NCBI GenBank assembly: GCA_900316955.1
Contig: ONEX01000001.1
Location: 630 to 64,629, forward strand
DNA length: 64,000 nt
Direction: 5' to 3'
DNA from: an uncultured Bacteroidales bacterium
GTDB lineage: Bacteria > Bacteroidota > Bacteroidia > Bacteroidales > UBA932
Within the stretch, counting starts at the first letter, position 1; each line of letters begins with the position of its first letter. This document shows, one piece after another, positions 10,951 to 23,598 of this stretch. A program made the translations under genes and the position numbers. The notes beneath the pieces are model-generated. The model did no database searches. It saw only the letters and a program-made list of their open reading frames with translations, and was not told the DNA's origin.

Positions 10951-11099
10951 ATAATCCTTGCGGACGGCTCGAAGCCGACGACCCCTGGACCGGTGGACGG
11001 GTAGGGTATTTGCAGGAGACTTGAATCAGATCAATAATTTGCTGTGAAAACGATGAAACTGCTTACAGGACTTCAAACACCAAGTTATTCTCTGACAAA

Positions 11100-11181
11100 C
11101 CGGCTCATTTTGTGCTCAACAACGACGATTCACGGCTCAAGAGTTTGGAAATTGAGCCGTATATGCTTTCTTATGAGCCGG
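11100..11181. repeat. Nested inverted repeats of CGGCTCA (4 copies)
   Basis: ccggctcat 11100-11108 / atgagccgg 11173-11181; acggctcaa 11132-11140 / ttgagccgt 11152-11160. Confidence 0.7.
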
Positions 11182-11262
11182 AAGAATAAGACGTTATAGA
11201 TTCCGCCCGTGAAAGGATTGGGGAGGAGGTGGCTTGATTTGAATTTTAGCCTCTAACAGATG

Positions 11263-11685
11263 CTATTGCTTAGGGAGACCCGTTTGAACCACCTTGACTG
11301 ATTCCGTCTTTGAGAAAGAACTTATCAGCACGATCGCTTCACGCTTGGACGTGGTCTTATTTGGCTCAATAATCAGGACTACACCAGATGTCCAAGATAA
11401 AAGATCCCTGGTCTGAGGGTAGTCTTCGATTACTTTGGAGACACTGATCCAAGGCGTTGCTGGCGTGCGATCCCCATTGGCCGGATCGGTATTCCATCTA
11501 TCTGAATAGCCAAGTTTTATAGTTACATCATCAATTCCCGTTGACGTGACTGGAATGGTGATTTCTCCACCATTAGAATCAACCAAATACTCTTCTTGGG
11601 CTACTGATATGGCTGGAGTGTCCCACTTTGCGCATGACAAAACAATAGTTGTCAAGGCCAAAAAAACGATAGCGTGTATTTTCAT
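11263..11685 (-). CDS. Lipoprotein with BACON/Ig-like domain
   Basis: Start MKIHAIVF; lipobox IVLSC; GGEITIPVTS...PWISV...IIEPNKTTSKREAIVLIS...VKVVQ BACON-like pattern. Confidence 0.7.
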   Translation of the reverse strand: MKIHAIVFLALTTIVLSCAKWDTPAISVAQEEYLVDSNGGEITIPVTSTGIDDVTIKLGYSDRWNTDPANGDRTPATPWISVSKVIEDYPQTRDLLSWTSGVVLIIEPNKTTSKREAIVLISSFSKTESVKVVQTGLPKQ

Positions 11686-11889
11686 AATAATCGTTTTAAT
11701 TAAAGGTGAATTCAATTTAGAAGTGCAACACACTTCAAAAGTCAAAAATAAACAATTGTTTACGGCATCTTGTAACCGAAAAACTCATGGGGATAATACA
11801 TTATTTCCGCCCGTGTATGGATTGGAGTGGAGTGGAGGGAATCTCCGAGATACTCTATCTAGTGATACTGATAGAAGAAGAAAGACAGG

Positions 11890-12366
11890 TCAATAGATAA
11901 TATCGTCTCCTTCGCAGATTTGCACCTGAAGATTCATCTCCTGTTGCCATCCCTTTTCTTTTGCATGGGCATTCCAGGCGGCACCGGGAGCGTGGTCCCA
12001 AGTTATATGGACCATATAACCGGGGAAACAGCCTTCCCTTTCCACATTCGTCGCTCTGTACAGGACGCTTCCGGTGGCAGGATCGGACAAGGTGAAACCG
12101 TCCTTTGTGAATTGACAGGAAAGATGTTCCTCGTCGGTGTCGATATACTGATTGTCAAGATATCGACACATTCCTGAGCGGACCAGTGCGGGAATCGTCT
12201 CGTCTTCGGGAATCCAGATCCACATCTGAAACTTGTTCTCTCCTTGATTGCCGGCGTATAGATATCGGACAGGAGGGAATGTCTCAGTCTGTTCCTTTTG
12301 GCAGGCACTGGCCCCAAAAAGAAGGGCGGTTGCGACGAACAAGCGGAGAATGGTTAACGGTTTCAT
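11890..12366 (-). CDS. Hypothetical lipoprotein
   Basis: MKPLTILRLFVATALLFGASAC lipobox; TATCTTTG -7 box upstream (12392-12399, minus). Confidence 0.7.
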   Translation of the reverse strand: MKPLTILRLFVATALLFGASACQKEQTETFPPVRYLYAGNQGENKFQMWIWIPEDETIPALVRSGMCRYLDNQYIDTDEEHLSCQFTKDGFTLSDPATGSVLYRATNVEREGCFPGYMVHITWDHAPGAAWNAHAKEKGWQQEMNLQVQICEGDDIIY

Positions 12367-12446
12367 AAAAGGGTTCATTTACAATGATATACAAAGATAC
12401 ACTTTTTCATACAATCCCGATAACTGCTTATTCTTGCATCGTGGAC

Positions 12447-12825
12447 GAAAGAAAAAAGGACCGGAGCATAGTCCTGGCCCTTTCTCCATAGCGTTACTTC
12501 ACAATCTCATATTCATCGACACCCGGGATAAGAGCGATACCGGTTTCTTCGAGGTGAATCTGTCCGGCGGAGTCAATGAAGCGATGTACAAGTCTCGCTC
12601 GTACGTCAAAATGCGCATCTGGCCGAGGTTTTCTGCTCAAGCCTTCCGGAATCAGGCGGATAATCGACCAAATCGGCGAGACTTGTACATGGAATCGCCG
12701 TTCTGCCGATGCTTTCCTGTACAAGCCAGACTTGTACAGGAGCCGAGCAGCGCAAACGAGCCAAGCCAGGACATAACAAAAACGCCCCGCATTCCCGCGA
12801 GGCGTTTGGAGCGGAAAACGAGACT
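12447..12825 (-). repeat. Islet-end module copy 2 (att + terminator + TGTACA motifs + gene tail + terminator)
   Basis: Nearly identical to 23162-23541; contains 15-bp IR 12584-12598/12676-12690. Confidence 0.9.
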
Positions 12826-12933
12826 TGTCAAATACAAGCACCGATAATGGGCGGAACGGGATTATTTAATTTTAGATTATTTAATCTTGCATAATTCAAT
12901 CCTGAATATTATCTTTGCCTAAAACGAGAAACG

Positions 12934-21642: not shown

Positions 21643-22097
21643 AAAACCCGCAGGTAAAGAAAACGTTCCTGCCGCAGGACATCGCCGTCCTGGCGGTTAT
21701 CTTTGCGGCAGGAGCCGCCTGCTTCCTTCTGGGAGAAGGATGGGGCGGTCTGGGAGTCGTGATTCTGCTTTGTGGCGCGATGATGCTTCCTTTCTACCGA
21801 CACGGTTATCGGCTTGAAGACCGCAAAGGCCTCTATCGGCTGCAGGAAATCTCTCTTCCCCGGGACAACAAAGCCGAGATCCTTGCCTATTTGGAAGGAA
21901 AACTGGAAACCCTCGACCTGCATTCCCCGCAGCCGGGCGGCGCCCTTGTGGAAGTCTACTATCGTAAAGATGAAGACCTACGGCTTGCCCGATTCTTTGA
22001 TTATGCCGACTTCTCGCAGGGAATCGAGTATCCTCTCCATGAAGTCACTCGGGAGCAGGTCTCCACGCTGGAATCCTTTGCAACAGACAAGAAATGA
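21639..22097 (+). CDS. Hypothetical membrane protein (two N-terminal TM)
   Basis: 152 aa; ATGA overlap; resembles the upstream gene (GY..E, EVYY, LFD(Y/F) motifs). Confidence 0.75.
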   Translation: MKNPQVKKTFLPQDIAVLAVIFAAGAACFLLGEGWGGLGVVILLCGAMMLPFYRHGYRLEDRKGLYRLQEISLPRDNKAEILAYLEGKLETLDLHSPQPGGALVEVYYRKDEDLRLARFFDYADFSQGIEYPLHEVTREQVSTLESFATDKK

Positions 22098-22104
22098 TTA
22101 AAAT

Positions 22105-22150
22105 GGGCAAGTCTGGCAGGAGGCCAGATGACCTCCTGCCAGACTTGCCC
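22105..22150. terminator. Perfect 19-bp hairpin between convergent genes
   Basis: GGGCAAGTCTGGCAGGAGG-8 nt-CCTCCTGCCAGACTTGCCC; no T-tract. Confidence 0.5.
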
Positions 22151-22401
22151 CAAGACGACGTGACGGAATTACTTCAAAAGCGAGGATTAAGCCGGCGGGG
22201 ACTTTGCACTACCCTGTGTCCATCCGTATCACGTTGTCTTCTTTGATTTTCCGGCCTAAATATAGCGATTATCTCCCAATCACACTATATTGCTCAATCT
22301 CTTTCCCTTCACGATAGAGTTTCCGCCCGAGAATGGATTGGGGTCGAGGGGCTTTACTTTTCTTGCCGGAGTTGGTGAGAGGCCGATAAAGTAACTCGAA
22401 T

Positions 22402-23112
22402 TTACTTGAGGCCTTTTTCCTGCGAAAAAAGCCATTTGAGACGCTTTGAAGTAAATGCATTATCACACGCATCGCGATGACGCTGCCCGAGAAGAACATC
22501 AAATTGAACCATCCCTCCGGCCTTTTCAATTTCTGACGAAAACCACTTCAGGGCCTCATAACTCCTCTCCTCCGAGCCCACGGTGACATATAGCGGAATC
22601 CCGGTGTAGTCTGAAGGATAGGCACGCTGCGCCTGACCGGAAGCAATGATTGCCGCTGTGAACAGTTTGGGATTATCTTTCAGGAGTTTCCAAACGCCGC
22701 AGGCTCCCATTGATGCACCGCAGATATAGATTCGGGACACATCGATGTACTTTGTTTTCATATACAGGGTGATCAGGTCCTCCACACTGTCCGTATATAC
22801 GGCTTTGCCGTCACGTCCATCCCACTCTCGGTCTTCCGGACATTGAGGAACGAGAAAATAGGCAGAAACGTGATTCTTTTTAAGATAGCGGGCAATGGCC
22901 TGAACGCCTGCTTGAGAAAGTTGTTTCCGGTTATCGTCCCCGCTGGCATGCCTGCCATGAAGATAGATTACCATGGCTGCGTCTTCTTTATCTATGACAT
23001 GGCTTGCCAACTCCTGATAAAGCATCCCATTATACTCTTTGGGCTCAAACTCCTGTGCATTCATACACAAGCATAGGAGAAGGCATATAAGGGTGCTTTC
23101 GTATCGTTTCAT
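22402..23112 (-). CDS. Secreted alpha/beta hydrolase (phospholipase/carboxylesterase-like)
   Basis: Signal peptide; IYLHG, FLVPQCP, IDVSRIYICGASMG nucleophile elbow, C-terminal H. Confidence 0.85.
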   Translation of the reverse strand: MKRYESTLICLLLCLCMNAQEFEPKEYNGMLYQELASHVIDKEDAAMVIYLHGRHASGDDNRKQLSQAGVQAIARYLKKNHVSAYFLVPQCPEDREWDGRDGKAVYTDSVEDLITLYMKTKYIDVSRIYICGASMGACGVWKLLKDNPKLFTAAIIASGQAQRAYPSDYTGIPLYVTVGSEERSYEALKWFSSEIEKAGGMVQFDVLLGQRHRDACDNAFTSKRLKWLFSQEKGLK

Positions 23113-23161
23113 ACTCAGGCGGGAATTACGATTTATCGGTGTAAAGATAAGTCAATTGGCC

Positions 23162-23541
23162 GGAAAGAAAAAGGGCACGAGCCCTTTTTCCAATAGCGTT
23201 ACTTCACAATCTCATATTCATCAACACTGGGGAGGAGTGCGATGCCGGTTTCTTCGAGATGAATCTGTCCGGCGGAGTCAATGAAGCGATGTACAAGTCT
23301 CGCTCGTACGCCAAAATGCGCATCTGGCCGAGGTTTTCTGCTCAAGCCTTCCGGAATCAGGCGGATAATCGACCAAATCGGCGAGACTTGTACATGGAAT
23401 CGTCGTTCTGCCGATGCTTTCCTGTACAAGCCAGACTTGTACAGGAGCCGAGCAGCGCAAACGAGCCAAGCCAGGACATAACAAAAAACGCCCCGCATTG
23501 CTGCGAGGCGTTTTTGAGTTTCTTGAGCGGAAAACGAGACT
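23162..23541 (-). repeat. Islet-end module copy 1, immediately 3' of tRNA-Gly
   Basis: Nearly identical to 12447-12825; 15-bp IR 23289-23303/23381-23395; terminator 23483-23515. Confidence 0.9.
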
Positions 23542-23598
23542 CGAACTCGCGACCCCGACCTTGGCAAGGTCGTGCTCTACCAACTGAGCTATTTCCGC
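23526..23598 (-). tRNA. tRNA-Gly (GCC)
   Basis: GCGGAAATAGCTCAGTTGGTAGAGCACGACCTTGCCAAGGTCGGGGTCGCGAGTTCGAGTCTCGTTTTCCGCT folds as a cloverleaf; CCA not encoded; TATCTTTG -7 box upstream (23635-23642). Confidence 0.97.

Follow-up and report, generated by a model that had tools for sequence, protein, structure and literature searches.

In the window analysed here, a 64,000-nucleotide stretch of DNA from an uncultured Bacteroidales bacterium, positions 11015–23598 hold a tandem array of small gene cassettes stacked at the 3' end of a tRNA-Gly(GCC) gene and bounded by displaced fragments of that gene. The array carries no mobility genes, its junctions are constrained at particular sites, its cassettes differ between strains and metagenome-assembled genomes (MAGs), the tRNA-Gly site is occupied in some relatives and empty in others, and homologous recombination has reshuffled the cassettes and moved the array as a block. 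We lean, with modest confidence, to the reading that this is a tandem array like those of cis-mobilisable elements (CIMEs), and that its junctions are, or recently were, functional sites for an integrase acting in trans.

Tandem units at the tRNA-Gly gene

The array is anchored by an intact tRNA-Gly gene, and the order of this gene and the neighbouring VWA gene is kept in related species. When the 23-nt tRNA 3' end was used as a query with up to three mismatches, the matches were the tRNA itself and 17015–17037, with 0.00 expected in shuffled sequences; the displaced copy agrees at 21 of 23 positions with the query 23-mer, one base of which lies outside the tRNA, and at 22 of 23 with the tRNA segment alone. 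A third copy was found by repeat search. The features of the anchor and the junctions are the following.

23525–23598, minus strand: intact tRNA-Gly(GCC), the array anchor, on the attL side (ARAGORN; Rfam tRNA, 69.6 bits)
23484–23515, minus strand: terminator hairpin term1, copy A, directly 3' of the tRNA (terminator scan)
23213–23483, unstranded: X element, copy A, a conserved noncoding block resembling a P' arm; TGTACAAGTCT sites at 23290, 23384 and 23433, palindrome at 23423–23443
23135–23212: distal module edge, made up of the hairpin term2 (~23183–23212) and ~50 nt conserved before the first cargo gene (alignments)
17038–17190, unstranded: P-arm of junction 2, with two direct repeats of AGGTGAAAC at 17092–17111, 53 nt from the core
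17015–17037, minus strand: core 2, displaced tRNA-Gly 3' fragment of 23 nt, broken in the T-loop (pattern search, alignments)
16987–17014, minus strand: term1 copy B, with X missing or degenerate on its left (terminator scan)
12809–12827, minus strand: core 3, tRNA fragment of 19 nt (repeat search)
12780–12807, minus strand: term1 copy C (terminator scan)
~12508–12779: X', a second X copy, with term2' at 12457–12475 (direct repeat, terminator scan)
11015–11262, unstranded: decayed junction 4, with core remnant GGAGACTTGAA, next a shortened arm that has GGACTTCAAACACCA at its end, and last a block termed D4B

The same G+C-rich hairpin follows every core toward lower coordinates, and the scan calls it as a minus-strand, tRNA-sense terminator. 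A first-pass annotation, made from the sequence alone, had claimed that the tRNA 3' end recurs at 17016 and 12809, each time with the same terminator; this is borne out, and the unit sizes it gave (~6.5 and ~4.2 kb) match the start-to-start distances of 6509 and 4207 nt between the tRNA 3' copies. In all complete junctions the identity to the tRNA ends after GAACT, at the T-loop/T-stem, a canonical sublocation. As Islander looks for, an intact tRNA gene is accompanied by co-oriented displaced 3' fragments (17015–17037, 12809–12827 and the remnant at 11015), which supports tandem units bounded by such fragments. The copies at 23.5 and 12.8 kb are parts of a direct repeat of ~350 nt that is 93–95% identical, 12457–12807 repeating 23183–23545 at 95%. 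The G+C content is 43–57% over ~4.0–24 kb versus 61–67% in the flanks, a composition that marks the cassettes as foreign, and the low-G+C region extends past the array start that the first-pass annotation reported.

Searches of the array cargo open reading frames against Pfam, NCBIfam and PHROGs returned no integrase, relaxase, excisionase or transposase, and tblastn queries (three integrases from Bacteroidota and an IS110 transposase) matched nothing in the array, in agreement with the earlier statement that no unit encodes an integrase, relaxase or transposase.

The junction module and related integrases

Alignment of public rumen metagenome contigs and the only GTDB genome matched, MAG RUG12336 of an uncultured Bacteroidia, defined the displaced tRNA repeats as part of a larger junction module of 0.55–0.65 kb. 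In the orientation of the window, the module reads term2 hairpin, X (~270 nt), term1, 23-nt core and arm (~150 nt), the last of which carries AGGTGAAACATAGGTGAAAC. X holds TGTACAAGTCT(CGC) three times, forward, reversed 77 nt further on and as a palindrome, and the homology of contigs L037 and L032 begins exactly at the distal module edge. The motifs described at unit ends by the first-pass annotation were all recovered: its TGTACA clusters correspond to TGTACAAGTCT, with six exact matches in the window against 0.39 expected; the AGGTGAAAC pair lies at 17092 and 17103; and the four CGGCTCA/TGAGCCG copies lie between 11101 and 11174, as nested inverted repeats.

Ten non-tRNA junction copies from the window and the metagenome contigs were surveyed. 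The core has zero or one mismatch to the tRNA end, except at the arm-deleted 12.8-kb junction, the arm motif lies exactly 53 nt from the core in 7/7 copies that keep it, and the arm ends 134–146 nt from the core. Among diverged copies, mean pairwise identity is 96–97% at the three X sites, 94% at the core and 96% over the arm motif and the next 35 nt, and 62–79% in the spacers. Conserved sites amid variable spacers argue against simple neutral decay, and the conservation of the module is the pattern expected for protein-binding sites under constraint rather than for neutral relics.

Decay, the alternative that the first-pass annotation had left standing, is also visible in the window itself, at junctions 2, 3 and 4. 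Junction 2, at 17 kb, retains arm, core and terminator, with no recognisable X; junction 3, at 12.8 kb, keeps core, terminator and X' and has no arm. Because RUG12336 (L028) has a full arm and core before the same ATPase upstream sequence (TCAAATACAAGC...), the arm of junction 3 was lost through a deletion at an AGACTT microhomology. At junction 4, the D4B block, which holds the nested CGGCTCA/TGAGCCG inverted repeats, matches the arm-distal part of a complete junction in L033 at 80% identity over 163 nt (E 4e-35); the match at 11015 is a decayed fourth junction and not a chance 10-mer.

Arm repeats of this kind lead to integrase-bearing elements. The degenerate 20-nt arm pattern AGGTG[AT]AACATAGGTG[AT]AA[AC] has 10 matches in IMG/VR, where roughly one would be expected by chance on a rough estimate that assumes ~6x10^10 bases. 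One 16-kb viral contig reads, at one end, tRNA-Arg(CCT), 112 nt, motif, 70 nt and a 391-aa integrase with Arm-DNA-bind_5, SAM_5 and Phage_integrase domains, and at the other end (attR) motif, 51 nt and a 19–25-nt tRNA-Arg 3' fragment, the geometry of the window, where motif and tRNA-Gly fragment are 53 nt apart. L050 encodes a 402-aa integrase with the same architecture, and 334 nt upstream of it stands the motif in its exact window form. The "end motifs" thus behave as parts of attachment sites, with a fixed 53-nt spacing and with the same motif and spacing at the attR of the tRNA-Arg element. The first-pass annotation had proposed to look for a tRNA-Gly-targeting integrase with the same end motifs; the integrase-bearing elements that carry the arm motif target another tRNA, and no integrase element with the arm-core-X combination was found.

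We infer from these likenesses that an integrase of the Arm-DNA-bind_5 type may have built the array, that the junctions may still be competent for recombination, and that mobilisation would occur in trans. In this model, a heterobivalent tyrosine integrase would cross over in the tRNA T-loop and insert each cassette, and each insertion would regenerate the tRNA and displace its 23-nt 3' fragment, so that the junctions between cassettes would read P-arm, core and P'-arm, like attP. The P-arm would be the ~150 nt with two AGGTGAAAC arm-type repeats, and the P' side the tRNA-type terminator together with the ~270-nt X and its three TGTACAAGTCT. As the array and the 64-kb window lack an integrase, action in trans would be required if the cassettes still move site-specifically. 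Homologous recombination, through the 0.35–0.65-kb junction repeats and the conserved flanks, has reshuffled the array and carried it over as a block.

X itself may serve as a P' arm, as a small RNA or leader, or in both capacities. Contigs of 260–290 nt over 23239–23540, with X'-type alleles (X' at 12534–12824), occur in four rumen metatranscriptomes, and X-sized contigs occur also in poly(A)/oligo-dT libraries. In the metatranscriptomes the adjacent hydrolase gene has approximately zero depth, and the VWA gene has a depth comparable to that of X; contigs from these RNA runs carry no strand information and may include DNA. Both strands of X fold better than shuffled sequences (z -3.9 and -4.3), covariation is weak on both (-0.71 and -0.36 kcal/mol; RNAalifold, nine diverged copies), and a 14-nt inverted repeat within X is invariant apart from a single compensatory change, a pattern common to RNA stems and protein-binding sites. 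Against Rfam, the whole window gives only the tRNA above gathering thresholds, and 12300–13000, searched with E up to 10, gives no meaningful match. X was also considered as coding sequence and rejected, since a 66-aa reading frame open in several copies is shifted by 1-nt indels between copies and the substitutions show no 3-nt periodicity; an invertible promoter between the 14-nt inverted repeats finds no support, all ten copies being collinear. At positions 3–767 of L037 lies the C-terminal part of an IS110-family transposase (Transposase_20, DEDD_Tnp_IS110), which ends 320 nt from the X edge; sister contig L032 has an outer-membrane protein gene in its place.

Relatives, cassette exchange and cargo

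Related loci were found through homologues of the flanking VWA protein. The tRNA-Gly site is empty in L038/L039 (VWA 93% identical), L040, L041, L054 and L055, where backbone polysaccharide-utilisation genes lie within ~350 nt of the tRNA, and in relatives with an empty site X is absent after tRNA-Gly. In L056–58, a 387-aa tyrosine integrase begins 230 nt past tRNA-Gly; because these loci carry an integrase island and their VWA protein shares 99.25% identity with its counterpart in the empty L038, integrase-mediated insertion at tRNA-Gly is current in the genus. Contigs L042 and L043 encode an identical VWA protein and diverge directly after the tRNA 3' end, L043 running on into a module-type terminator and L042 into other DNA and a defence island.

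Some further features of these loci were observed. The island of L056 (6677–13037) encodes, besides the 387-aa integrase, NADAR, Lipocalin_4, HTH_3, WYL_2 and a second, 197-aa Phage_integrase fragment. In L042, the segment 11649–21200 after tRNA-Gly encodes a DNA ligase, DUF2779, AAA_5 and McrBC genes, is probably a defence island, and has no integrase within 10 kb. Both L038 (11405–11580) and L042 (11403–11580) have their own terminator, GTTTCACCTATGTTACACCT, 53 nt and a partial T-arm copy (ACGAGTTCGAGTCT), apparently a conserved relic of the attachment-site family seen in the window.

Cassette number and order, which the first-pass annotation had proposed to compare, vary between strains and MAGs (L003, L007, L023, L028 and L034). 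The arrangements found in other contigs are:

L003: tRNA, X, unit 1, a diverged module, different cargo (a 117-aa protein, a TonB-dependent receptor and two DUF4625 genes), a decayed junction, then DUF4943/YhfC
L028 (RUG12336): unit 2 joined to the same alternative cargo as in L003
L023: unit 2 connected via X with a hydrolase variant and DUF2442
L007: 10,504-nt circular permutation of the 10,705-nt units 1+2
L034: 6407 joined to 11196 via a thioesterase gene
L031–L037: module-adjacent cargo, including an ATPase_2 pair flanked by two modules that are 2.3 kb apart, outer-membrane proteins, PBP-like, GNAT and DUF6377

The points of exchange can be placed in three of these contigs. L003 switches from window-like to RUG12336-like sequence inside a 60-nt arm stretch that is identical in all three, L007 switches from X-type to X'-type between 23404 and 23482, and the switch in L023 lies between 23312 and 23402, the last two both within X. 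Since the resolved exchange points are internal to repeats, homologous recombination is indicated. The X' of L034 comes with a terminator loop of the X type, apparently a conversion patch. Assembly chimerism is an unlikely source of the joints in L007 and L023, which come from two samples, two assemblers and two crossover intervals, and for L023 chimerism is further disfavoured by the different DNA beyond the hydrolase.

The array has also travelled as a whole. L002 is 99.2–100% identical to the window, per segment, over 10251–23872, a 13.6-kb array, and L010 is so over 17092–23886. Their VWA proteins are 74.6% (L002) and 72.7% (L010) identical to that of the window and 73.6% to each other, and the synteny of L002 beyond OmpA differs from that of the window. 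The shared tract takes in the tRNA, the intergenic region and ~125–140 nt of the VWA 3' end. Identity that ends within the VWA 3' end indicates a recent transfer of the array between backbones, tRNA included, by homologous recombination in conserved flanks, and not an insertion at the tRNA. The tracts themselves end in a conserved 3' stretch of VWA (23749–23890), at ~23873 in L002 and ~23886 in L010. That L002 and L010 are chimeras is unlikely, given two assemblies, different VWA alleles and different breakpoints.

Pfam confirms the gene content that the first-pass annotation gave for the three units; the list below adds a further segment and a recurrent motif.

17191–23134, unstranded: unit 1 cargo region (Pfam; gene calls on public contigs; no mobility-gene matches)
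22402–23112, minus strand: S9-type hydrolase, unit 1 (Pfam)
21639–22097, plus strand: 152-aa protein, unit 1 (gene calls)
21337–21642, plus strand: 101-aa protein, unit 1 (gene calls)
20251–21201, plus strand: Na/Ca exchanger, unit 1 (Pfam)
19416–19700, minus strand: 94-aa protein, unit 1 (gene calls)
17682–19364, minus strand: Na/Pi-PhoU, unit 1 (Pfam)
17242–17685, minus strand: PepSY_like, unit 1 (Pfam)
12831–16986, unstranded: unit 2 cargo region (Pfam; unit 2 also found in other contexts)
16376–16759, minus strand: BlaI-type repressor, unit 2 (Pfam)
15255–16373, minus strand: M56 peptidase, unit 2 (Pfam)
14180–15262, minus strand: TlpA-like thioredoxin-fold protein, unit 2 (Pfam)
12934–14067, plus strand: ATPase_2, unit 2 (Pfam)
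11890–12378 and 11263–11745, minus strand: two small lipoprotein-like genes, unit 3 cargo (lipobox-type N-termini in translations)
4600–10950, unstranded: further low-G+C, strain-variable segment with AraC, a 151-aa lipoprotein, a PepSY fragment, an M49-like peptidase, an Asp-Al_Ex permease and LysR (G+C profile; Pfam)
22320–22351, 11804–11835 and 11200–11231: copies of a ~35-nt post-gene motif in the window; in other contigs at L031 3830–3946, L032 6341–6483 and L033 1264–1425

Each of the two unit 3 lipoprotein genes is followed by the motif CCCCAATCC.TTCACGGGCGGAA. In the form CCCCAATCC(A/T)TTCACGGGCGGAA, this motif of ~35 nt trails single cargo genes (the hydrolase, both lipoproteins, outer-membrane proteins and PBP-like), has two longer flanking subtypes and forms no obvious hairpin. 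Within unit 1, a near-perfect 20-bp hairpin at 22105–22150, after the 152-aa gene, divides the hydrolase sub-unit from the rest, and hydrolase and X can occur without that rest (L023). A 60-nt segment, 21348–21407, is missing from the otherwise identical L001, where the 101-aa reading frame (21337–21642) is not called, and L006 has a 77-aa version of it, a small indel polymorphism within the unit. Upstream of the BlaI-type repressor gene, an AT-rich palindrome at 16761–16804 with GTTGTACAAC is probably the operator of that gene; since it shares TTGTACA with the X sites, the BlaI-like protein could conceivably cross-regulate cassette promoters.

The segment 4600–10950 probably consists of older cassettes. 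A 142-nt PepSY fragment at 6401–6542, 98% identical to 17252–17393 in the 3' part of the PepSY_like gene, sits between the 151-aa lipoprotein gene and the M49-like gene and looks like the stump of an older unit-1-like cassette; L034 departs from the window exactly here. Word depth over 16952–17615 is 2.5–3x that of the flanks in four DNA runs, which points to extra arm/core and/or PepSY copies in the same genome or community.

Competing explanations and known systems

Several observations weigh against junctions that serve an integrase in trans. None of the three cassette-level exchange points that were resolved falls in the core; they are all within long repeats. Unit 1 adjoins the tRNA in every contig with the window's VWA, and the tRNA-proximal cassette is the least variable, which is not as ongoing capture at the tRNA predicts. 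Damage affects three of the four window junctions: junction 2 has lost X, junction 3 has lost its arm by deletion, and junction 4 is degenerate. By tblastn, neither the window nor any module-bearing locus holds an integrase or a remnant of one, and the integrase island that L056 does carry at tRNA-Gly has neither arm motif nor X. Searches of GTDB genomes, JGI metagenomes, IMG/VR, phages and plasmids turned up no autonomous element with the exact arm-core-X site; the module has no match in phage or plasmid collections, and the X pattern is absent from IMG/VR. Among assembled Logan k-mer contigs, as distinct from raw reads, there is no circle and no core-to-core excision joint; the Logan joints listed have 20–40-nt sides and are best read as other module copies.

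Much of this would be accounted for if the units were fossil islands whose integrase genes have been deleted, with no site-specific movement and with variation that stems from RecA-type recombination and from block transfer via the flanks. Exchange points internal to repeats, an array shared at 99.2–100% on backbones whose VWA proteins are 73–75% identical, the damage at junctions 2, 3 and 4, the invariant tRNA-proximal cassette and the failure to find a helper integrase in the loci searched all fit this account. We still hold it to be rather unlikely, as it does not readily explain the footprint-like conservation, with sites at 94–97% and at fixed spacing within spacers of 62–79%, nor about a dozen different cargo sets of which none has an integrase remnant, nor the polymorphism between L042 and L043, which begins exactly at the tRNA end with no flanking homology evident there. 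More doubtful again is a full cassette-capture system, in which units of 1–6 kb with attachment sites of ~0.6 kb would be cut out, swapped and stacked at tRNA-Gly by a heterobivalent tyrosine integrase that acts in trans and is encoded on the chromosome or on an integrative and conjugative element (ICE), with X as P' arm, as regulator of the first cassette gene, or as both.

A mainly regulatory or RNA role, in which X would be a small RNA or leader between two terminators, with BlaI-like TGTACA operators, and would have been copied ahead of accessory genes with the tRNA fragment and arm as passengers, appears improbable. It agrees with the X-sized contigs in four metatranscriptomes beside a hydrolase gene of approximately zero depth, with the folding of both strands and the hairpins that flank X, with the TTGTACAA palindrome in the BlaI promoter region (16761–16804), and with the gene that always begins downstream of X on the tRNA-sense strand. 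However, covariation is weak on both strands, no Rfam family matches, the RNA contigs are strandless and possibly DNA, X is absent past tRNA-Gly in empty-site relatives, and a tRNA fragment broken in the T-loop and arm repeats at a fixed 53 nt are left unexplained. An altogether different recombination system, either integron-like with IntI and attC or an IS110 recombinase with X as a guide resembling a bridge RNA, is very improbable. The IS110 transposase part 320 nt from an X copy in L037 and the core-like sequences within X, which share CGAGACTTG, speak for it; but no IS110 or IntI gene is present in the window or the other module loci, L032 carries the same cassette without a transposase, the two 14-nt inverted copies pair with each other and not as guide loops, and there are no attC-type sites. 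A bridge-RNA link was accordingly rejected, the transposase being confined to L037 and tblastn finding none in the window or other loci.

The integron-like array proposed by the first-pass annotation is not supported either. No integrase lies by the entry site, where the neighbours of the tRNA are VWA, OmpA and SusC/D, and no intI with attI and Pc, indeed no tyrosine recombinase, is detectable in the window; in place of attC sites and co-oriented cassettes there are tRNA-core modules, genes on both strands, and the units' own terminators, which flank X. The likeness that remains is an ordered stack of small cargo units with their own recombination sites at one chromosomal entry point, and the entry-point cassette is here the most conserved.

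Most rumen Bacteroidia have not been cultured, and little is known of the ways in which they acquire and shed accessory functions. Here one tRNA-Gly site serves as a common landing pad on which genes for transporters, lipoproteins, outer-membrane proteins and regulators have accumulated, and an identical 13.6-kb array is found on backbones as different as those of separate species. If a helper integrase exists, the array would represent natural gene cassettes riding on another element's integrase, and would supply Bacteroidia genetics with a defined attP/attB pair on which to build tools; if there is none, relics of attachment sites would have become portable homology for RecA-driven cassette shuffling. 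A capture system, if that is what the array is, would amount to an integron-like economy built on a tRNA attachment site.

Among described systems, CIMEs have attL/attR-type flanks, lack integration and transfer genes and accrete in tandem at the 3' end of a target gene, as in ICESt1/ICESt3-CIME of Streptococcus thermophilus and the tRNA-Lys composite islands of S. agalactiae (PMC5704250). The array shares the absence of integration and transfer genes, the tandem units at the 3' end of the target and the internal junctions that carry the end of that gene, and its flanks are of the att type, with core and arm repeats at fixed spacing in the geometry of an integrase-bearing element's attR. It differs in having at least 10 cargo sets, some of only 1–2.5 kb and all without an integrase, in that no related autonomous element with the same attachment site was found, in its uncultured rumen Bacteroidia host, and in a junction that is a 0.55–0.65-kb module including an element present in RNA libraries. 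Integrases that target tRNA genes regenerate the gene and displace its 3' fragment, often with a crossover around the T-loop, and tandem arrays of such islands are known (PMC4383910); heterobivalent tyrosine integrases bind arm-type repeats through their N-terminal domain, as does IntDOT, one of the Bacteroidota Arm-DNA-bind_5 integrases (PMC2817482). The array resembles these in its regenerated tRNA gene and displaced fragments and in arm repeats that match those of the integrase-bearing IMG/VR element, whereas Islander requires one integrase gene per island and the array has none, and the IMG/VR element targets tRNA-Arg and has no X.

The array departs from the described cases in its many small integrase-less cassettes, in its long constrained module with X, and in that the documented exchange is homologous only. 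Its closest natural parallel is the ssrA array of Dehalococcoides, where low-G+C, strain-specific islands inserted at the T-loop stand in tandem, with many direct repeats of the 3' end of this tRNA-like gene downstream of its intact copy, and where some islands without an integration module were proposed to be cis-mobilisable (PMC3146451). There, 16 islands carry a CcrB-like serine recombinase; here, recombinase genes are absent from every island, and the arm repeats suggest a heterobivalent tyrosine integrase.

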